Source: Bdellovibrionota bacterium
GTDB lineage: Bacteria > Bdellovibrionota_C > UBA2361 > OMII01
DNA: 44,101 nucleotides
Assembly (NCBI GenBank): GCA_044345405.1
Contig: JBIJBE010000029.1
Span: 1-44,101 of the forward strand
Direction of reading: 5' to 3'
Shown: one piece after another, positions 14,497 to 44,101 of the stretch
Layout: each line of letters starts with the position of its first letter
Position numbering within the stretch: position 1 is the stretch's first letter
Notes under the pieces: generated by a model
Seen by the model: only the letters and a program-made list of their open reading frames with translations
Database searches by the model: none
What the model was told of the DNA's origin: nothing
Translations under genes and position numbers: made by a program

Positions 14497-16050
14497 CTAG
14501 GAGGCCCCCGATGTTGAGGTGACCTGCTCCATCACACGCTCCAAGTTGAAGCTACCCGGCTTCTGTCGTGGAGGGAACTCGCGGAAGCTCTGCAACCACT
14601 GACCAACGTACGCCGCGGCTGGAGCGATCACGAACATGTGCTCCAGGTACCACCGTTGCCAATCCATACCGATGTCGTGCGCAAGCTCAAACGGATCCAT
14701 GCGAAGGTTCGTGATGAGCGGCGCTCGAAGCTCCTCAAACGGGGTCTGCCACACGTGCAAGCCGTGCGCGTTCTGTTTGAGGAAGGTGATCTTCCAATTC
14801 TCATACCGAAGCGCCGCTGGCTGTCCATCGTCTGTCCAGTAGATGAAGTCCCTACGTGGCCACTGCCCCTCGCCCTTCAGCGCGGGCATGAGGTTGTACC
14901 CATCGAGGTGTACCTTGTAGGAATTTCCGTTTATCTTGCGTCCCTTGAGAAGATCCTCTTTCGCGGTTGAGTCACCAGCGGCGGCGAGGAGGGTGGTCAT
15001 CATATCCTCATGCGCCCCCACGTCGTTAACAACCGTGCCGGGTTTGATCACTCCGGGCCATTTGATGGCGCACGGAACGCGGTATCCACCCTCCCATTGG
15101 GTGTTCTTCTCACCACGGAACATCGTCGTTCCACCATCAGGCCAGGTAAACGCCTCGGCTCCGTTATCGGTTGAGTACATGACGATAGTGTCGTTCTCGA
15201 TGCCAAGCTCTTTGAGCTTCGCGAGAAGCTCACCGATCTGGCGGTCGTGCTCGACCATTCCGTCAGCGTAGATACCAAGACCGGTCTTACCAGCTACGCC
15301 CTGTTTGAGGTGGGTGAAGATGTGCATCTTGGTTGAGTTCCACCAGAGGAAGAAAGGCGTATCGGATTGCTTCGCTCGCTGCATGAAGTCGAGAGCCTTA
15401 GCGTTAACCTCTTCATCGATCGTCTCCATCCGCTTCTTGGTAAGAGGTCCGGTATCCTCGACCTTACCGTCAGCGAAGCTATGAATGACACCACGGGGAC
15501 CAAAACGCTTCTTGAAATCAGGATTCTTAGGATAATCCGGATTCTCCGGCTCCTCCTCCGCGTTGAGGTGGTAGAGATTTCCGAAGAACTCATCGAATCC
15601 GTGCTCGGTCGGAAGCATATCATCCCGATCGCCCAGGTGGTTCTTACCGAACTGTCCGGTCATGTATCCTTGGGCTTTCAACAGGGTCGCAATGGTGGGA
15701 TCCTCTTTTTTCATTCCCTCGGGAGCGCCGGGCAACCCAACCTTAGTAAGACCAGTGCGGATCGGAGATTGTCCCGTAATGAACGCGGCCCGCCCCGCGG
15801 TGCAGCTCTGCTGACCGTACCAGTCAGTGAAGAGCGCTCCATCTTTGGCGATTTGGTCGATGTTGGGGGTCTTGTAGCCCATCATGCCGTTGTTATAGGC
15901 ACTCACGTTGAACTGCCCGATATCATCTCCCCATATTACTAAGATGTTCGGCTTCTTCTTGCTCGGCTGAGCTACAGCCACCACCGGCACTACGCTCTGC
16001 GCAATCAACGCGGCGGACAAGATGATTTTGACAAAGAATAGTGTTCTCAC
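14497..16050 (-). CDS. Arylsulfatase (formylglycine-dependent, Cys-type)
   Basis: KPNILVIWGDD, SCTAGRAAFITG (CxxxR), GKNHLG, STDNG, GEKNTQWEGG; signal peptide; GGAGG SD before GTG 16050. Confidence 0.93.
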   Translation of the reverse strand: MRTLFFVKIILSAALIAQSVVPVVAVAQPSKKKPNILVIWGDDIGQFNVSAYNNGMMGYKTPNIDQIAKDGALFTDWYGQQSCTAGRAAFITGQSPIRTGLTKVGLPGAPEGMKKEDPTIATLLKAQGYMTGQFGKNHLGDRDDMLPTEHGFDEFFGNLYHLNAEEEPENPDYPKNPDFKKRFGPRGVIHSFADGKVEDTGPLTKKRMETIDEEVNAKALDFMQRAKQSDTPFFLWWNSTKMHIFTHLKQGVAGKTGLGIYADGMVEHDRQIGELLAKLKELGIENDTIVMYSTDNGAEAFTWPDGGTTMFRGEKNTQWEGGYRVPCAIKWPGVIKPGTVVNDVGAHEDMMTTLLAAAGDSTAKEDLLKGRKINGNSYKVHLDGYNLMPALKGEGQWPRRDFIYWTDDGQPAALRYENWKITFLKQNAHGLHVWQTPFEELRAPLITNLRMDPFELAHDIGMDWQRWYLEHMFVIAPAAAYVGQWLQSFREFPPRQKPGSFNLERVMEQVTSTSGAS

Positions 16051-16226
16051 AGGAAGCTCCTCCAACAATGAACGGCCGGCCGAATATCTGACATCTTGGG
16101 GGCGCAGACAAGGACTTTCTTCACCCCTGGACACCGTAAACACCCCCTTTTCAGCGGAGGATGATCGTGACATTAATTTTTACTGATAGTCCGGTCCATC
16201 AACAATCGTTCTACCCCCAGGCACCT

Positions 16227-16982
16227 ATGCGTCCCCATCTCGCTTTGCTCCTTCTGATTGCGGTAATTCTACCAAGTACTCGTGAGTGTAGGTCTGACGA
16301 CTGGAACTTCATCGTTGCCCCGTACGCGCTTATGCCGAACATATCGGGCGACGCCTCCGTCGGTCGAGTCGACAACGTCGATGTGGATGTAAGCACGAGC
16401 GACATCCTTGATTCATTAGACCTCGGCGCCATGCTTCAGCTTGAAGCGCGTCATTCATCAAACTTCGGCGCGATGGTGAACTACGCCTTTATGGATCTCG
16501 GACAGAGGGTCGACGGTCCGCTCGGCTTTACGCATGTGAAAGCGGATATCTTCCAGGGGATCCTTGAGGGCTTCGGAAGCTATCGCTTCACCTTCGAAAA
16601 GAGCACCCTCGACGCTTACGCAGGGGCGCGGTGGTGGGACATCAACCTTGGGGTCGACGCGGACACACCGTTCGGCTCTCGTGACTACAACCGCGACGAG
16701 GACTGGGTAGATCCGGTTCTGGGTGCGCGGTGGCTACCCCGAATCGCGGAGCAGTGGCGCCTCCTCATTCAAGGAGATGTCGGCGGATTCGGCGCGGCCT
16801 CACAGTTCTCTTGGTGCGCTCAGGCAGGAGTGCTATGGGATGCGTCGGAGATGACCTCCGTTACCGTCCTCTATAAAGCGCTCGGGGTCGACTACCATTC
16901 CGGCGCACGCCATACCCCTGGATACTTCGAGTACGATACGATTACGCAAGGGCCGCTGATCGGGGTGGTTTTCAGATTATGA
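16227..16982 (+). CDS. Outer-membrane beta-barrel protein
   Basis: Signal peptide, alternating beta-strand pattern, WVDPVLGAR, GDVGGFG, C-terminal GPLIGVVFRL. Confidence 0.75.
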   Translation: MRPHLALLLLIAVILPSTRECRSDDWNFIVAPYALMPNISGDASVGRVDNVDVDVSTSDILDSLDLGAMLQLEARHSSNFGAMVNYAFMDLGQRVDGPLGFTHVKADIFQGILEGFGSYRFTFEKSTLDAYAGARWWDINLGVDADTPFGSRDYNRDEDWVDPVLGARWLPRIAEQWRLLIQGDVGGFGAASQFSWCAQAGVLWDASEMTSVTVLYKALGVDYHSGARHTPGYFEYDTITQGPLIGVVFRL

Positions 16983-18037
16983 AATCTCCACTCCTCGCCT
17001 CCCTTCTAACGACGACACTTTTCGCAGCCGTCTTCGGTACCGCGCTTACGGCTCGATGCGCTCCGGCGCCGTCGGGAAATTCGCTCCATGAGGCGATGGT
17101 CTGGATTCCGGGGGGCACCTTCACCATGGGAAGCCAAGATGAGAGCAGTCGCCGCAACGAGGGACCGCCTCATGAGGTCAAGGTTGATGGATTCTGGATC
17201 GACGAACACACGGTCACAAACGCGCAGTTTGATGCCTTCGTTCGAACCACAGGATACGTCACCACCGCCGAGCGCGCGCCGAGCTGGGAGGAGCTTCAAA
17301 AGCAGCTTCCACCGAATTCTCCAAGACCGGACGCGAGTCTGCTCGTCGCTGGGTCTATGGTTTTCACTCCCACCAACGGGCCCGTAGAGCGAGGCGATAT
17401 GCGCAACTTTTGGCGGTGGGTACCGGGGGCAAACTGGAGACATCCGGAAGGCCCAACAAGCGACATCAAAAACAGGATGAATCACCCCGTTGTCCAGGTT
17501 TCGTGGGATGACGCGAACGCGTACGCGCAGTGGGCTGGCAAGCGCCTCCCAACGGAAGCGGAATGGGAAATCGCGGCGCGTGGTGGAAAAGAGAGGCAAA
17601 AGTTTCCATGGGGTAGCGAGTTCAGACCGGACGGAAAGTTCATGGCGAATACCTGGCAAGGCGATTTCCCGTATCGAAATACCGGAGAGGATGGATTCAT
17701 CGGTACCGCCCCAGTTAAATCTTTTCCTCCAAACGGATACGGCCTCTATGATATGGTCGGGAATGTATGGCAGTGGTGTAGTGACTGGTACCGACCGGAC
17801 ACCTACGTTCGACGAGCGGAGAACGCTCCCAGCGAGGAGCACTCGTGTCACAATCCGAAAGGCCCCGACCAGAGCTTCAACCCAACGAATCCAGCCTCAC
17901 CGGAGCGAGTAACGAAAGGAGGCAGCTTCCTCTGCCACGTCAGCTACTGTGAGAGCTATCGTCCAGCGGCGAGGCGAGGCACTCCCACAGACACCGGGAT
18001 GTCTCATATCGGATTTCGGTGCGTGACCTCCAAATAA
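16979..18037 (+). CDS. Formylglycine-generating enzyme (sulfatase-modifying factor)
   Basis: GGTFTMGS, HPVVQVSW, RLPTEAEWE, NGYGLYDMVGNVWQW, GGSFLCHVSYC (catalytic Cys pair), IGFRC; ATGA overlap with the barrel gene. Confidence 0.93.
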   Translation: MKSPLLASLLTTTLFAAVFGTALTARCAPAPSGNSLHEAMVWIPGGTFTMGSQDESSRRNEGPPHEVKVDGFWIDEHTVTNAQFDAFVRTTGYVTTAERAPSWEELQKQLPPNSPRPDASLLVAGSMVFTPTNGPVERGDMRNFWRWVPGANWRHPEGPTSDIKNRMNHPVVQVSWDDANAYAQWAGKRLPTEAEWEIAARGGKERQKFPWGSEFRPDGKFMANTWQGDFPYRNTGEDGFIGTAPVKSFPPNGYGLYDMVGNVWQWCSDWYRPDTYVRRAENAPSEEHSCHNPKGPDQSFNPTNPASPERVTKGGSFLCHVSYCESYRPAARRGTPTDTGMSHIGFRCVTSK

Positions 18038-37790: not shown

Positions 37791-39626
37791 CTACGGAACA
37801 GGCCTCCCATGTACGGATGGTGTCCGCACGGGATTAACGCCTTTTAGCGGCACGGCCCTCGGTGCGCCAAGAAGCTCCTCTTCGGTGGGCATTCGCGAGC
37901 CACTCCTGAGCGCCATCACAAAAGCGGCGATCCGACGGGCGTTAGAGAGCGAACACTCCACTCGCGCTCGCTCAGCGGCGATGGAACCGATGGGATCTCG
38001 GCCGTTTCGCAGAAGTCCCCGCATTAGGTCACTTAGTTGCTCAACCGAAGCCGACCCGAAATAGAGAGTGCCTTTGCCATCCCGGTGTAGCGGAGACCAA
38101 CGGGCTCGCGCGATCGGACATCCGGAGGAGAGCGCGAGGTGAGCCCAATCGGTCTCATTCCCTCCGAGCTCAGGCAACAGGAAGGCCTCCGCCGCGGCCA
38201 ACGTAAGGAGCGTTCTCTCGCTATCCTCCGAGAGATGGTGCACCGGGATTCCCTCAAAAAGGGCCCGGACCTCTGGCTCGATAGCTCCCGCCCCTCCTAT
38301 GAACACTACGCCGAGCCCACCAAGCTGCCGAAGGGCTTCGGCCACGACCCTTAGGTTCGTCGTTCGCTCCGCGTTTACACGCTCGCCCGCCATAACCACA
38401 TACCGTTCGCGATGGCCGAGCCGGGCTCGCGCGAAGGCCCGCTCGGGGGCTGGCATACAACCGAAGATCGAGTCAGCGCCATACCAAAGTGGGCAGCTAA
38501 AAAAGCGACTTCGTCCGATGTGTTGATACCGCTCTTCCAGGGCGAGCCGAATATCGTCACCAGCGCAAAGAACCAGGTCGGCTAATTCAAAGGAGAGGCC
38601 CCCTTGGAATACCCGGAATTCGAGATTGCCTCCCAGCACCTCAGGTGTCGCTGTTGTCGCGAGCACAACGCTGGGAGTCCCAAGCGCCGTTGTCAGTCCT
38701 GTGGATACAAATACGGATGCTCCAAGTCTTCGAGCGATGGTGCCGTTTATCTCCCGCGCCGAGGTCAAAAGGAATGAATTAAAGGGAGGCGCATCGCTCT
38801 GAGTCATCCCAATCTCATCTCTCTCTAGCGCGCCACGATTGAGAAGGATGAAATCATCTCGCTGTTCGCCTTGGTGCCACTCGGTTAAAATATCTCGCCA
38901 CAACACCGTTGAAGAGCCACTTGCGAATGCGACACCATCGATGACTATCGGTCCATCAGTGGGTCGAACGCTCTTGCGATCCGGGGACCGTCCAGAAAGA
39001 ACTGGGAACGCCATCTCACAATCTTCTGCGTACCGATCAACCATGGGGTTATAGTTACGCTTCTGGGTGGCGTGAAGGTGATAGCATTTCCAATCAAGCG
39101 AGACGTTTTCAACCCCGAATCCTGAGCGAATCATGCGTCCCAAGAACAGGCTTTCGCATCCCAGTTTGCCTAAGTGTATATCGAGGTCAAACGCGGAAAT
39201 TGGCGCGTACATTGCCCACGCGTCACTGGACTGCTGATTGATCGTCCATTCGCTTTTCTCCTCGGGTTGAACCTCTCGACGTGTGGACACAAAGAGTGAG
39301 GTTCGATCAGGAAGGTTTCTGACATGCCATATCGTCTCATCGAAGTAGATGTCGGTGTTACAAAAGACGACTATCTCTTCAGCGCAGTATTCGTTTGCGA
39401 CACGAATAAGGTCGGCGTACGTCTGTCTCCCCTTGGAGACGGGAATCGGGATGACTTTGGGATTGCGGAGCAGGGTTTCATCCTCCGCCCCCTCCTCGAC
39501 AAGAGCGAAGATTCGCCCTATCTCGGGATTCTGAACATTCCGATGAAGCGCCTCGCGCAGCTCAAGTTGCCGGTAGAAATCGGAATCCTTATAGAAAGGG
39601 GTGATGACGTTTATTCGGGTGGTCAT
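37791..39626 (-). CDS. Glycosyltransferase fusion: GT-A-like N-domain plus degenerate GT4 (GT-B)-like C-domain
   Basis: N-part RQLEL...NTDIYFD...SSDAW...LGKLGCE...HLH; C-part IVIDGV...VFVST..TT..TPSV...PE...AAEAFLLP...SGCPI. Confidence 0.65.
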   Translation of the reverse strand: MTTRINVITPFYKDSDFYRQLELREALHRNVQNPEIGRIFALVEEGAEDETLLRNPKVIPIPVSKGRQTYADLIRVANEYCAEEIVVFCNTDIYFDETIWHVRNLPDRTSLFVSTRREVQPEEKSEWTINQQSSDAWAMYAPISAFDLDIHLGKLGCESLFLGRMIRSGFGVENVSLDWKCYHLHATQKRNYNPMVDRYAEDCEMAFPVLSGRSPDRKSVRPTDGPIVIDGVAFASGSSTVLWRDILTEWHQGEQRDDFILLNRGALERDEIGMTQSDAPPFNSFLLTSAREINGTIARRLGASVFVSTGLTTALGTPSVVLATTATPEVLGGNLEFRVFQGGLSFELADLVLCAGDDIRLALEERYQHIGRSRFFSCPLWYGADSIFGCMPAPERAFARARLGHRERYVVMAGERVNAERTTNLRVVAEALRQLGGLGVVFIGGAGAIEPEVRALFEGIPVHHLSEDSERTLLTLAAAEAFLLPELGGNETDWAHLALSSGCPIARARWSPLHRDGKGTLYFGSASVEQLSDLMRGLLRNGRDPIGSIAAERARVECSLSNARRIAAFVMALRSGSRMPTEEELLGAPRAVPLKGVNPVRTPSVHGRPVP

Positions 39627-39844
39627 TAACCTTCCTGAGCCCTTGATTTGTTCGAATGAGGTCCGGTGGTGCGTAGGGTAACGGTCGTTACAACTCGGTC
39701 CTTTCTTGAGTGAAAATTACAGTCAAAAAACGACCGAAAATCACCATTTTGATAAAGTACTTACACCACCCAAGCTGCCCGACCGAATGCGGCCCCCTTT
39801 CTTCTTGAATGCCGCCCTGTTTGAGGTACTCTCCCCCCCCGACT

Positions 39845-41698
39845 ATGACGAGACGCTCCGCTACCAAAGCCACTACTACATCGACGCCCGCTACGCTCCT
39901 AGAAGCGCACCTGCCAGCCGTGGAACAGCACGCCGCCCTGCCCCTTATTGTGCGCGCCGCGTTCGCGCCCCCCCTCTCAGAGATGCGACATCATCTATCA
40001 GTCACCGAACAACACTTCATGCGAACGTTTTATGGGCCCACCGTGCCCGACCTCTCAGACCCTCGCAGGACTCAGTTTCAACACCGCGCTAACGCGACCT
40101 CGCAACTTTTCGAGGCTCTCAAAGAGAGAGGGTATTCTCGAAGCGATATACGGCTTGCGCTCGAACAGAGCCGATACGCTCCCTTTCTATCTGAGGTACA
40201 AAGATGGATTCGATCGGGAGCTGATACACAACTCGCGTCTACCCCGAAGCCGATTCTATTCGATGTGCGACATCGGGCATTCGCGAAGGAGGCGTTCCAA
40301 CTGCTCGCCCATGAGCTAAGAATTCCACATCACCTCTTCGAACACGGAAAGATAGAGCCAATATTTCTGCCGAGAGCGGGCTTCGCGATGAGAGTTCACG
40401 CGGAAGGGAAGCCATTGACCTTCCTTACCGCGCTCTCAAACGGCACCTTATTCGCCCCAGCGTCTCACGATGCCCAGGAGCTTGCTCGTGGGCTTGCCTC
40501 CCCAAATAGACAGCTGGTCAATATTCTTGAGCTGCAAGCTCCAGCACATCTTGAAAAAGCGGTCTCACCACGCCCCGTATCTGAGGCCGGCTCCAAGCGA
40601 ATCGCCCTCTTTTTGAGAAACGAAGAGTCAACTCCGTCTAGCTATGTCTATCTCCCGCCCTCGATTCATGAGACTCACCTTATTCCCCAGGTGGATTGGG
40701 AAGCCCTCCGCAAGGGAGAGAGACGAATCTCGCTGTTCAGCGCTGACAAGAAGAAACTGATTGCGACGGTGACGGTTCCAACGGGGCCGCATCCTGTCCC
40801 GAGCATCTCTTTTACGAAGGAGGTCGGCGAGTCTCCGTTCAAAAGGTTTAAGCCTCTTGGCGCCTTCCTTGCTGGGAAAAACTCCGTGCGCCCAGAAGCG
40901 GTTGAGATCGAGCTCTACCGTACGCGAAAGACCGCGGGGTACACGCAACAACGGATACTGCTCGGCAAGCAGATGTCGGTACCCGCATGGTATCCGCTCT
41001 CCACGATCCGAGTACAACCTGGAATAGGCCCAGATGGGACACGATTTCTTGGTCTCTATCCTCCAGGGGTCTCCCCGACGACAAATCCTCCCCTGCGGGC
41101 CTTTACCCTTGAGAAATCGCGAGTGCATTTAAAGCCGATCCAGGTGGAGGCCGTTTGGCCTGGGCTCAAGGACCGAGCCGATCAGCTTCGCGCGTTGATC
41201 AAGAACGTGGCAACCGGGAACGCGAATATCTCAAGGGAGGCGTGGCTCTCTTTGCACGAGGTCGCCCAAGCGGAGCCTGTACTCGTCAGCGCACTCCTCA
41301 TCGGCCAGGAGAGCCCATTCTCTATTCACGATGAAAAAGCGCTGCAAGACATCCCCGGATGGGAGGTCCTTAAAGGGAGCATCGAGGGATATCTCCTACA
41401 TCAACAGGCCCGATCAGTCCCCTACGTTGCGCACCTCGTGGCCCAAGCGCATGGCATAACAACGGCGGACAGCATCGCGGCGGTCTCTCTCTTGTCGGAT
41501 GTTTCGTACGGCAAGGCTAAAGATCCCTTGACGCAACTGACACGGTTGGCCACTGTAGCTCCTGATGCCTTGGAGGAGTCCATCAAGTACCTCCAGAAGA
41601 GTCATGTGGCCGCGGTGAGGAACCTCGTGGGTACAGGCAACGCCAATCAACTTCTCCTGCGGCTGGCGCGCTCTCAGAGAGATCGAGCGTGGGTATAG
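39845..41698 (+). CDS. Large hypothetical protein
   Basis: ~617-aa uninterrupted ORF (track start 39809); no motif recognised. Confidence 0.7.
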   Translation: MTRRSATKATTTSTPATLLEAHLPAVEQHAALPLIVRAAFAPPLSEMRHHLSVTEQHFMRTFYGPTVPDLSDPRRTQFQHRANATSQLFEALKERGYSRSDIRLALEQSRYAPFLSEVQRWIRSGADTQLASTPKPILFDVRHRAFAKEAFQLLAHELRIPHHLFEHGKIEPIFLPRAGFAMRVHAEGKPLTFLTALSNGTLFAPASHDAQELARGLASPNRQLVNILELQAPAHLEKAVSPRPVSEAGSKRIALFLRNEESTPSSYVYLPPSIHETHLIPQVDWEALRKGERRISLFSADKKKLIATVTVPTGPHPVPSISFTKEVGESPFKRFKPLGAFLAGKNSVRPEAVEIELYRTRKTAGYTQQRILLGKQMSVPAWYPLSTIRVQPGIGPDGTRFLGLYPPGVSPTTNPPLRAFTLEKSRVHLKPIQVEAVWPGLKDRADQLRALIKNVATGNANISREAWLSLHEVAQAEPVLVSALLIGQESPFSIHDEKALQDIPGWEVLKGSIEGYLLHQQARSVPYVAHLVAQAHGITTADSIAAVSLLSDVSYGKAKDPLTQLTRLATVAPDALEESIKYLQKSHVAAVRNLVGTGNANQLLLRLARSQRDRAWV

Positions 41699-41773
41699 TG
41701 GCGATAAGCGGCAAAGCGCTCTACCGTCCGTTTTTCCCTTGTTACTGAAGGGACTCCCTCGTACTGTTTTGGC

Positions 41774-42487
41774 ATGTCAGAAGACACTAAAAGGGTCGCG
41801 AACTACATCCCTACGTTCTTTGAGACGGAGGACCCTCAACGGGCTCGCGAACTCATTCTTACCAAGAACCACTTGATGAGCTCCGAGGAACGGTGGGAGA
41901 AAGAGACCCCGTACCTCTGCGATAAGCTTACGACGGCACTCGCCCCCACAGCGGAATCTGTGCTCCTGGACTTTGGATGCGGCATCGGACGCCTCGCGAA
42001 GGCGCTTATTGAGCGACACTCCTGTCGGATTATCGGGGTGGATATCAGCGCCTCGATGAGACGGATGGCGGAGGAGTATGTAGCATCCGAACGGTTTCGA
42101 GTTATTGCGCCCGAGACGCTAGACCACGAATGTAACCCCGTACCAGTCCAGCCAGTCCATCAATACCCGGAATGTAACCCCGTACCATATGCCGTACCAT
42201 GTGCCGACCACGCCTACGCGGTGTGGGTACTCCAACATACGGCCCACCCTCACGACGAAATTCGCCGAATACACCGCGCCCTCAAACCCGGCGGCAAGCT
42301 CTACCTCGTGAACGCCCCCGGTCGATGCGTCCCCTGCGACCTCGGTTGGGTAAACGACGGTATCGATATCTACTCCACGGTCACCGAACTCGGATTCCGT
42401 CAAATTGACCGAGAAAAGATGTCCCTCTACCCCGACGACAACGATCCCAGTCGCATGCACTGGTGCGTAACCTACGAACGGGTCTGA
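41774..42487 (+). CDS. Class I SAM-dependent methyltransferase carrying an in-frame repeat-derived insertion
   Basis: LLDFGCGIGR, GVDIS, WVLQH, LKPGG; insert ECNPVPVQPVHQYPECNPVPYAVP. Confidence 0.88.
   Translation: MSEDTKRVANYIPTFFETEDPQRARELILTKNHLMSSEERWEKETPYLCDKLTTALAPTAESVLLDFGCGIGRLAKALIERHSCRIIGVDISASMRRMAEEYVASERFRVIAPETLDHECNPVPVQPVHQYPECNPVPYAVPCADHAYAVWVLQHTAHPHDEIRRIHRALKPGGKLYLVNAPGRCVPCDLGWVNDGIDIYSTVTELGFRQIDREKMSLYPDDNDPSRMHWCVTYERV
42128..42200 (+). repeat. Two intragenic copies of GAATGTAACCCCGTACCA plus partial stutter (REP-like)
   Basis: Identical 18-mers at 42128-42145 and 42170-42187 (42-nt period); partial CCGTACCA at 42192; core is the reverse complement of the downstream motif. 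Confidence 0.85.
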
Positions 42488-42614
42488 ATTGGTGTCTGAA
42501 TTGGTACGGGGTTACTTTTCTTTTGGTGTCTGAATTGGTACGGGGTTACTTTTCTTTTGGTTGATTTGGTGTTGGTTGATTTGGTGTGGTTGATTTGGTG
42601 CGGGGCTACTTTTC
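42482..42614 (+). repeat. REP-like repeat array upstream of the RAYT gene
   Basis: 34-bp exact tandem duplication (42489-42522, 42523-42556); TGGTACGGGGTTACTTTT at 42502 and 42536; variant TGGTGCGGGGCTACTTTT at 42596; three TGGTTGATTTGGTG stutters. Confidence 0.85.
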
Positions 42615-42672
42615 ACGCAACTTTTAATAAACGCCGCCGATAGTATGCGCGTCTATCTTGGATGCAAACACT

Positions 42673-43668
42673 ATGTCTCGCCCGCCACGTATTCTGTTAC
42701 CCCACACCTGCGCTCTCCTTACCTCTAGAGTGCAGGAGGGGCTCCCATTCGTCTGCACACCCCTCATGGAGCGAATCATCTGGAGCGCCCTAGCAGCGGC
42801 ATTCAACCTCCATCCGATCAAAATCATCTCTTTTGTTGTTATGGGGAATCATGTTCACATCCTGGTCCTCATTGAGGATCCCAGGGATGTCAAGAGCTTT
42901 ATGGAGCGTTTCAAATGCGAAACAGCTCATGCGGTCAACAAGCTATTAGGAAGGCGTCAGGTGACCGTGTGGTGCGAAGGCTACGACTCGCCAGCTATTC
43001 TCACAGTAGACGATCTTATTGAGAAACTCGCATATGTGTATGCGAACCCAGTCCGCGCCCACCGGACCGACTCGATCGACAACTATCAAGGGGTTTCAAG
43101 TTGGCAGATGTTTACGTCAGGACAAATTACAAAAGAGGTTAAACGAATTCGAAGGCCTCTCATAAACCCCTTACCCCATCGCTCTCTGTCACTCAGTCAA
43201 CATAAACAACTAGCTGACACAGTAGAACAGGCAACAAGCGAAACACTTTCATTCTCTGTTTCTCCGGATGCTTGGGTAAAGGCATTTCCAAATCATCTAA
43301 AACCGGAGGAACTCAAGCAAAGGGTTTTAAACCGAATCAGGGAAATAGAGGCTGAATTCAATCTCATACGAAAAGCGAAAGGCATCCGACTTCCTAGCCC
43401 TCAGGAGATTATTAACCAACCAATCGATTTCCCGTACTCACCAACTACCTTCGGTCGCCGGATGTGGTGCATCTGCCGGGATATCGCGGTGCGACTCTCG
43501 TTCATAGCATTTATAAAGTCGCTCAAAGCTCAAGCATTAGAGGTTCGAAAAAAGTGGGCAGGTGGTTACCAACACGAACCTTTTCCGCCCGGGCTATTTC
43601 CTCCCTGCCAACCTCTACTAGCAAATTTACTTCCCGCATTTGTTCGTAGTGCTTTACAAGCCGAATAA
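42673..43668 (+). mobile_element. REP-associated tyrosine transposase (RAYT; Y1 HUH, IS200/IS605 superfamily) with C-terminal extension
   Basis: MSRPPR N-terminus, TSR, MGNHVHIL (HUH), VW..GYDS, YVYANPVRA (catalytic Tyr), SSW; tail ending FPPG. Confidence 0.85.
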
Positions 43669-43795
43669 CATAAGTAGGGTAAAAGAGTCTGCGATTTACT
43701 TTTTGTGATGGGCGCGACTGAATGAACATACGAGTTTCCTTCTGAACTCTTCTCTCCTAAGGAAGCCATGGACCTCCGGTATACTCCCCGGATCT

Positions 43796-44101
43796 ATGCC
43801 CAAGCTATTTCTTCTGTTATTCGGCCCCAACCTTAATCGTATCGAGCGACGAAACAAATCGCTGTATGGCTCACTAACACTTCGACAGATTCACGAAGAA
43901 CTGCAAGAACGTTTTGCCTCGTCGGATGTTGTTCTGGACCTTCGCTATTCAAACTGCGAAGGGCAGCTCATCGATATTCTTCAGGAGTACTCCGATAAAG
44001 CAGCTGGAATTCTTTTCAATCCTTGAGCCTTAACCCATTACAGCTACGCGCTTCGTGATGCCATAACCGACGTTGAATGTCCTGTGCTTGAGGTTCATTT
44101 C
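43796..44101 (+). pseudogene. aroQ: Type II 3-dehydroquinate dehydratase, interrupted by an in-frame TGA and truncated by the window edge
   Basis: GPNLN, YG..TL, SNCEG.LID, then NP*ALTHYSYALRDAI...PVLEVH continues in frame past TGA 44024-44026. Confidence 0.8.

Follow-up and report, generated by a model that had tools for sequence, protein, structure and literature searches.

How did a methyltransferase gene come to share a short sequence with the repeats that lie beside a neighbouring transposase gene? The question is raised by positions 1 to 44,101 of contig JBIJBE010000029.1 from a Bdellovibrionota bacterium (assembly GCA_044345405.1), a stretch that was analysed over its whole length and is hereafter called the window. 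This 44-kb stretch, with 56% G+C and 87% coding sequence under translation table 11, is ordinary chromosomal DNA. The methyltransferase gene carries the 18-mer GAATGTAACCCCGTACCA twice in frame, and the 14-nt core of this 18-mer is found again, as its reverse complement, in a repeat array between the methyltransferase gene and a RAYT-like gene. The original prediction took the two copies to be a repetitive extragenic palindrome (REP) associated with RAYT, which had been inserted into the gene and had given rise to new protein sequence. The explanation that we favour, and to which we give an even chance, is a different one: a recent, lineage-specific, in-frame expansion of a loop of the methyltransferase, which took place at an inverted repeat formed by the gene and the array, by local duplication and slippage and not by transposition.

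The expanded loop of the methyltransferase

The features of the methyltransferase gene on which the argument depends are the following.

41774..42487, + strand: coding sequence of a class I S-adenosylmethionine (SAM)-dependent methyltransferase, 237 aa, assigned from the list of open reading frames (ORFs), Pfam, 421 homologues and Foldseek
42128..42145, + strand: copy 1 of the 18-mer GAATGTAACCCCGTACCA, encoding ECNPVP (residues 119-124), in the loop of ancestral length
42170..42187, + strand: copy 2 of the 18-mer GAATGTAACCCCGTACCA, encoding ECNPVP (residues 133-138)
42146..42169, + strand: spacer of 24 nt between the copies, with a 9-nt periodicity (CCAGTCCAG / CCAGTCCAT) that begins in the last 3 nt of copy 1
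42146..42199, + strand: in-frame segment absent from the 219-aa homologues, 54 nt or 18 aa, VQPVHQYPECNPVPYAVP, whose boundaries can slide within the repeats
42180..42203, + strand: tandem duplication of 12 nt, CCGTACCATATG / CCGTACCATGTG, encoding VPYA/VPCA (Tandem Repeats Finder row 42180-42210)
41906..41915, + strand: 10-mer ACCCCGTACC, common to the core and situated within the conserved EKETPYL motif

The assignment of the enzyme is supported by Pfam matches to Methyltransf_23/11/12/25 (E ~1e-14, over the cutoffs) and by motif I of the GxGxG type, DFGCGIG, which is conserved in the alignment as in class I methyltransferases. The structural model gave Foldseek matches to TleD, UbiG, SpnF and RebM, with a probability of 1.00 for TleD, UbiG and RebM. 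The coding sequence ends with TGA at the same position as the ends of its homologues. The two copies of the 18-mer are 42 nt apart from start to start and both are in the frame of the methyltransferase, so that ECNPVP is encoded twice, as originally predicted. The ORF reads ...LDHECNPVPVQPVHQYPECNPVPYAVPCADHAYAVWVLQH... across the expanded loop, and the methyltransferase would yield the peptide VQPVHQYPECNPVP.

The site was examined in an alignment of the window protein with 18 homologues, which comprised the top matches and a spread of others chosen from the 120 listed of 421. The alignment confirmed that the 18-mer site falls between the motifs GVDIS and WVLQH. Sixteen of the 18 homologues have zero extra residues there, and the insert falls in the least conserved columns. 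In an AlphaFold2 model built from this 19-sequence alignment (mean predicted local distance difference test score, pLDDT, 88.6), residues 121-143 form a coil between a helix (113-120) and a strand (144-150), and the means of pLDDT in 10-residue blocks over the loop are 57 and 55. The low pLDDT of about 55 places the insert in a low-confidence, variable loop, and the loop that bears it is predicted to be disordered, tolerant and exposed at the surface. The placement in a surface loop that had been suggested earlier fits this model. From the general topology of class I methyltransferases we presume that, relative to the SAM site, the loop lies between beta-3 with its short helix and beta-4. In these respects the locus looks like a translated insertion of a repeat, since the extra segment is in frame, is absent from 16 of the 18 homologues and lies in a tolerant coil. 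A copy of a dispersed repeat unit was not recognised in it: only the 14-nt core is held in common, the flanks are native and the spacer is unmatched.

The closest homologues form a series of lengths of 219, 223 and 237 aa. The homologue P0001 (237 aa, 97% identical) carries the identical 18-aa segment. It represents a separate cluster, with 8 member sequences on 2 contigs, and differs from the window protein at 7 other residues. A protein that differs elsewhere and has the identical insert shows that the insert is not an assembly artefact of the window, a possibility that had been raised at the outset; the expanded gene persists intact. P0002 (223 aa) has 4 extra residues, and its VPCAVTCADH matches VPYAVPCADH of the window. 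The 219-aa proteins P0003 and P0004 have the loops LDHECNPVPCADH and LDHECNPAPCADH, with ECNPVP once and ECNPAP once, respectively. In more distant 219-aa homologues the same columns read QESTAAPCVDQ (P0007, encoded at the locus L001 described below) and EKSNSGPWADH (P0005). Since P0003 and P0004 contain one ECNPVP or ECNPAP at the length of 219 aa, and since the positions of E, N, P and C are common to the outgroups, copy 1 is native to the loop of ancestral length. The earlier expectation that homologues would show a gap of about 20-25 aa was thus borne out in the absence of the segment and not in its length, which is 18 aa. Similarly, of the two copies that were thought to be inserted, copy 2 lies inside the extra segment and copy 1 does not.

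The origin of copy 2 can be read from its flanks. The stretch 42165-42187, which is copy 2 with its 5' flank, has 21 of its 23 nt identical with the corresponding stretch at copy 1; 5 nt of native coding flank (ACC..GAAT) are included. Because copy 2 carries the coding flank of copy 1, it is a local duplicate of gene sequence and not an independently inserted unit. Beyond the core, copy 2 and the array units have about 4 of 9-11 flank positions in common, as read by eye. The first 9 nt after copy 1 are like the array flank at 6 of 9 positions; over 12 positions the flank of copy 1 agrees with the array at 6, which is no better than the 5 of 12 given by the unrelated flank of copy 2.

The extra segment seems to have been built in unequal steps. 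The 12-nt step is a clean head-to-tail repeat, and P0002 shows the same step of +4 aa; a native quasi-repeat, CCGTACCA...CCGACCA, could have seeded it, as judged from the sequence. The 42-nt step, which consists of the 24-nt spacer and the second 18-mer, has only about 1.5 copies with unrelated tails. A clean tandem duplication of 42 nt was considered and found unsupported: at offset 42 the tails have the same base in 5 of 24 positions, a score that 4226 of 5000 shuffles also reached. The period of 42 nt would equal the spacing of two native GACCAC (Asp-His) codon pairs that are expected in the 223-aa form. The spacer had no matches elsewhere in the window at up to 3 mismatches. The array was also considered as the donor of the 24-nt spacer, and this was rejected: the best local score was 7, and 902 of 2000 shuffles, like 36% of the window tiles, scored as high.

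The repeat array and the RAYT-like gene

Downstream of the methyltransferase gene, the following features were found.

42482..42616, + strand: repeat array between the methyltransferase and RAYT-like genes
42482-42505, + strand: duplication of 12 nt, GTCTGAATTGGT, which includes the methyltransferase codons GTC TGA
42489-42522 and 42523-42556, + strand: two identical 34-nt units, from repeat analysis
42557-42600, + strand: three tandem 15-nt units, TTGGTTGATTTGGTG, with 96% matches, between the 34-nt units and the diverged unit
42583-42616, + strand: diverged unit, 71% identical
42502..42515, - strand: array core A, exact reverse complement of the gene core
42536..42549, - strand: array core B, exact reverse complement of the gene core
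42596..42609, - strand: array core C, 12/14, GTAGCCCCGCACCA, an older, diverged copy
42673..43668, + strand: RAYT-like gene of the Y1 (HUH) transposase family, 331 aa from ATG

The array has tandem periods of 12, 34 and 15 nt. Its first GTCTGAATTGGT, at 42482, contains the last codon and the stop codon of the methyltransferase, which indicates that the array grew in place from native sequence. Of 19 tandem-repeat rows in the window, 5 lie within 42180-42600, and the two highest-scoring rows (146 and 81) are among them; this concentration marks both arms of the inverted repeat as hot spots of local duplication. It is worth noting that, if the TGA of the methyltransferase were read through, a frame would be open across the whole array to a TAG near 42643. 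All methyltransferase homologues end at the position of the TGA, so this open frame (42488-42645) is probably meaningless.

The RAYT-like protein matches Y1_Tnp (PF01797) with 32.5 bits against a cutoff of 23 (E = 1.1e-7). The NCBIfam model REP_Tyr_transpos (NF047646) was matched over positions 4-144 of 146 with 68.8 bits, which is below its cutoff of 80. Many homologues are named 'REP element-mobilizing transposase RayT' by the Joint Genome Institute (JGI). N59, H60 and H62 of the HUH motif and Y121, which we take to be the catalytic residues, are invariant in 21 sequences (the window protein and 20 of 120 listed homologues). The protein has a C-terminal extension of about 190 aa. The ORF finder placed the start at a TTG (42658), which would add 5 residues that the homologues are without; the common start is the ATG at 42673. 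A search of the PDB with the single sequence gave 0 matches, and the best match of a profile search of the PDB, an IS200/IS605-type transposase, was not significant (E = 0.33).

As had been predicted, the core of the 18-mer is the reverse complement of a motif upstream of the RAYT-like gene, with two exact copies and a third at 12/14. With up to 2 mismatches allowed, the 14-nt core is matched 5 times in the window, twice on the + strand in the coding sequence and three times on the - strand, in the latter case always between the methyltransferase stop (42487) and the RAYT-like ATG (42673). The expectation from shuffles is 0.10, and 5 matches were reached by 0 of 100 shuffles. Other 9- to 11-mers of the core were found nowhere in the remaining 43 kb of the window, except the 10-mer ACCCCGTACC in the methyltransferase gene itself. 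This 10-mer is native coding sequence and part of no insert; E44 and T45 of the EKETPYL motif that contains it are invariant in the alignment. We also examined the DNA of relatives, which amounted to 80 loci and 1,227,280 nt among the matches listed, and the 14-mer was present in none of these 80 loci.

The strength of the link between gene and array has to be judged with care. Each of the two pairs of exact cores, that of the gene and that of the array, goes back to a recent local duplication, so that the independent evidence is a single match of 14 nt, or 16/17 with flanks. The chance of such a match, taken as one exact 14-mer from a 34-nt unit in the neighbouring gene of 714 nt, is about 1e-4 by a rough hand estimate that assumes uniform base composition. 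The match coincides with the part that is kept in both old and young array units. We regard the link between gene and array as real, supported as it is by this one match. An old inverted duplication of the gene was considered as the source of the array and rejected: with the cores masked, the best score was 10, which was reached by 31 of 300 shuffles.

The status of the array motif as a REP is another matter. As expected of REPs, the two identical 34-nt units and the one of 71% identity are found in the 170 nt that precede the RAYT-like start. In the excerpted text of Di Nocera et al. (2013, PMC3733652), REPs are recognised by a GTAG or CGTC tag at one end. Cores A and B begin with GTAA, and only the diverged core C begins with GTAG. 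No hairpins were found over the array units in a DNA fold of 42470-42670 (z = +1.24; folds as good or better were given by 177 of 200 shuffles). The array is on one side only of the RAYT-like gene, and among 9 weak inverted pairs in 42480-43830 none involves the core, so that no inverted partner was found 3' of that gene; the sole inverted partners are in the methyltransferase coding sequence, 314-372 nt away. Since the units are not palindromic, are not found elsewhere in the window and are one-sided, the status of the motif as a REP is not established. Given these features and the native gene flank of copy 2, the claim that a RAYT-associated REP had been inserted in the gene is not supported.

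In folds of 42100-42625, the core complements in the array pair with the two gene copies as two nested 14-bp helices, which are present in the minimum free energy (MFE) and centroid structures of both the RNA and the DNA. The RNA fold of this region has z = -2.13, with 2 of 100 shuffles as good. No promoter-like and no terminator-like sites were found over 41600-43900, and no Rfam matches over 41500-44101 at E <= 1. As no terminator-like site was found between the methyltransferase and RAYT-like genes, the two could be co-transcribed. At the position of the Val of the window protein, P0004 has Ala (ECNPAP), and the reverse complement of core C has GCA where A and B have GTA. This correspondence, drawn on the gene side from protein, gives a hint of co-variation between gene and array.

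Origin of the expansion

We propose that the expansion proceeded in two steps. The first is the 12-nt tandem duplication, which changed VPCA into VPxA-VPCA and is common to the 223-aa protein P0002. The second added a further 42 nt, composed of 23 nt of re-copied gene sequence (ACC..GAATGTAACCCCGTACCA) and about 19-24 nt of other sequence. The expansion is situated exactly where codons of the native-length loop carry a perfect 14-nt reverse complement of the array cores 314-372 nt downstream. The array, too, was enlarged in place by tandem duplication, its units taking in the methyltransferase stop codon. The gene and array copies would constitute an inverted repeat, from which two nested helices of 14 bp could form when the DNA is single-stranded or when a transcript runs through both genes. 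Such pairing, possibly aided by nicking by RAYT, may make both arms prone to slippage and template switching. In addition, the 14-mer may have been made uniform in gene and array by templated correction of the quasi-palindrome type, in either direction, and selection in the gene would keep only in-frame products in the tolerant loop.

Several points weigh against this explanation. The 19-24 nt between the copies are unexplained, and a plain 42-nt duplication predicts paralogous tails, only 5 of 24 positions of which agree. The perfect 14-nt match to the array in a loop of native length is without mechanistic explanation. The DNA fold of the whole region is not significantly stabler than shuffled sequence (z = -1.19; 12 of 100 shuffles as good). 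The codons for ECNPVP or ECNPAP in P0001-P0006, and the presence of the array there, are deduced from the proteins, and the causal link of pairing or RAYT activity to the duplications is one that we infer. A role of RAYT in the expansion is unproven.

The alternative closest to the original prediction is that RAYT moved REP units out of its own flank and into the methyltransferase gene, where they are now translated in the manner of Rickettsia palindromic elements (RPEs) or intragenic GTAG/CGTC REPs. The exact 14-nt identity with the RAYT-side core would agree with this, as would the presence of an intact RAYT-like gene, with HUH and Tyr conserved, 170 nt downstream. The absence of the insert from 16 of 18 aligned homologues and the 6/9 match of the nucleotides after copy 1 to the array flank point the same way, and translated intragenic REPs are documented in other species in the part of Di Nocera et al. 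consulted here (PMC3733652). Copy 1, however, came without change of length and has E, N, P and C positions as in the outgroup loops, while the flanks of copy 2 are native to the gene. The spacer is unlike the array, and the flank match of 6/12 is no better than the unrelated 5/12. Moreover, the array units are not hairpins and lie on one side of the RAYT-like gene, and there are no further copies in the 44 kb or in the 80 relatives' loci among the matches listed. The anatomy gives no support to the idea that a REP was transposed into the methyltransferase gene; we consider such an event unlikely. A mere coincidence, in which the loop codons match the array core by chance and ordinary slippage expanded the loop without regard to array or RAYT, also seems improbable to us. 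The independent evidence is indeed one 14-nt match, and the related 10-mer ACCCCGTACC, native in the conserved ETPY motif, indicates that such strings arise from the gene's own codons. The similarity between array and gene ends at the core (31 of 300 shuffles as good), and the choice of this finding by eye, out of many windows, favours chance matches. Nevertheless, 5 matches appeared in 0 of 100 shuffles with an expectation of 0.10 even with 2 mismatches, one exact 14-mer has a chance of about 1e-4 by the rough estimate, and the match coincides precisely both with the conserved core that old and young array units have in common and with the place where the gene expanded.

Two further possibilities treat the pairing itself as the essential feature. 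A long-range helix of RNA or DNA could be selected, for example for stability of the methyltransferase mRNA or for read-through into RAYT, and be kept by compensatory evolution. The nested 14-bp helices in the MFE and centroid structures, the RNA z of -2.13, the absence of terminator-like sites between the two genes with the possible co-transcription, and the Ala of P0004 beside the GCA of core C, deduced from protein, are all consistent with such a helix. Against it stand the lack of Rfam matches in the region searched and the loop of 314-372 nt, a considerable length for a regulatory helix. In addition, the duplicates on either arm show 100% identity and are of recent origin, and hence are without a covariation signal. 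We judge a selected helix to be very unlikely. The loop copy and the RAYT-side repeats could instead be co-evolving arms of one 'split' inverted-repeat element, a substrate of RAYT or of template switching, so that RAYT-side repeats would repeatedly seed in-frame duplications without transposition; the agreement of Val/Ala in the protein with GTA/GCA-type cores in the array hints at such co-evolution, but this we hold to be a slim possibility. Local duplication and slippage at the inverted repeat stays the explanation that we prefer.

Gene neighbourhood and related systems

The history of the neighbourhood was examined in the relatives. The closest among the listed loci of GTDB representatives is L001, from a river metagenome-assembled genome labelled Pseudomonadota, whose methyltransferase is 68% identical. 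L001 keeps the gene upstream of the methyltransferase (57% identity over 592 aa); downstream it has EnvC/FtsX/FtsE-like genes and no RAYT gene. A tblastn search for the RAYT homologue gave 0 matches in the 80 relatives' loci among the matches listed. Linkage was judged from an indirect indicator, the longest contig listed for each protein cluster. It is 108,290 nt for methyltransferase P0006, RAYT P0269 and aroQ P0394, 165,742 nt for methyltransferase P0005 and RAYT P0270, and 20,819 nt for RAYT P0271 and aroQ P0396. Since homologues of the three genes are apparently on common contigs, the RAYT-like gene seems to be an old resident near the methyltransferase and aroQ genes, in genomes whose methyltransferase loop is without NPVP. 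The RAYT-like gene tracks the divergence of its neighbours, as expected of a vertically inherited RAYT. By the same indirect indicator, methyltransferase P0002 and aroQ P0392 have a longest contig of 172,840 nt that is listed for no RAYT cluster. This weakly suggests that the relative with P0002, which has ECNPVP and the 4-aa step, may be without a RAYT gene on that contig, which would fit either secondary loss or independence.

Other genes of the window gave the following side observations. Directly upstream of the methyltransferase gene, a conserved protein of about 630-665 aa is encoded both in the window (39809-41698) and in L001 (7889-9886); its sole Pfam match, CHAD, is not significant (E = 0.0087). 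A HerA-like ATPase is encoded further upstream in both. Between the HerA-like gene and the conserved gene, the window has a 611-aa ORF on the - strand (37791-39626) without a Pfam match. As the two genes are adjacent in L001, this ORF looks extra in the window lineage. At 14497-18037 a sulfatase gene and the gene of a formylglycine-generating enzyme (FGE-sulfatase) are close together, with an unannotated ORF between them, and are an ordinary maturation pair.

3' of the RAYT-like gene is aroQ (43796-44101), for type II 3-dehydroquinate dehydratase, which has an in-frame TGA at 44024-44026 in place of a Gly conserved in relatives (NP-G-ALTHYS). Truncated forms of 76 aa are also separate database clusters, P0398 (on 12 contigs) and P0399, and forms that bear the Gly (P0388-P0390) are 91-99% identical and have the full length of 145 aa. 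TGA ends 8 of 36 ORFs of the window, including the methyltransferase at its homologous end, so that a recoded genetic code is unlikely. For the truncated aroQ, a pseudogene, a site of read-through and a variant within the population are all conceivable.

The expanded loop resembles several known systems in part. Slippage is known to produce in-frame tandem duplications in protein loops, and quasi-palindromes are known to be corrected by template switching. The 12-nt head-to-tail duplication seeded by a native quasi-repeat, the stepwise length variants and the perfect complementarity of nearby inverted sequences are like these processes. The 42-nt step, in contrast, is not a clean tandem, and the inverted partners are further apart than is typical. 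RPEs, some of which lie in frame in protein genes of Rickettsia, are mobile palindromes about 100-150 nt long that occur many times in a genome. The present case is similar in that a repeat-derived extra peptide lies in a surface region of a conserved, apparently functional protein; it differs in that the 18-aa expansion is without a palindrome of its own and is not known to occur in further copies.

Coding insertion of repeats had been described earlier as best known from Rickettsia, which is incomplete, because the available text of PMC3733652 reports, for many species, GTAG/CGTC REPs that lie inside genes and are translated. There, GTAG/CGTC REPs are described wholly inside ORFs of known proteins of several species, often as dimers encoding 20-30 aa, and some RAYT genes are without REPs and flanked by other repeats. 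The methyltransferase locus is like these intragenic REPs in that a RAYT-linked short repeat lies in an ORF in frame, where such REPs add about 20-30 aa. It is unlike them, as far as this text describes them, in that only the 14-nt core is in common, the units are not stem-loops, and of the two gene copies the first belongs to a loop of unchanged, ancestral length, whereas the second was duplicated locally together with native flanks. In the excerpts of Bertels and Rainey (PMC5581495), RAYTs are typically single-copy, and abundant flanking 16-mers occur in only some RAYT groups. The HUH/Y1 gene of the window, which looks single-copy and has repeats in its immediate flank, is like this REPIN/RAYT system. 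REPINs are inverted REP doublets that are tens of nt apart and abundant genome-wide, whereas the partners here are 314-372 nt apart with one arm in a gene. The protein here also differs in being under the NCBIfam RAYT cutoff and in its C-terminal extension of about 190 aa.

Since translated intragenic REPs (PMC3733652, as excerpted) and RPEs have already been described, the conceptual gain from this locus is limited. A coding repeat may match a motif on the RAYT side without having been inserted: of the two copies here, the first is native to the loop and the second was duplicated locally. If the link with the RAYT side is causal, the locus would be a small, dated example (219 -> 223 -> 237 aa) of repeat-associated instability adding a peptide to an enzyme loop. 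If the gene copy and the array are indeed arms of one split element, RAYT-side repeats would generate new protein sequence in a neighbouring gene of housekeeping type.

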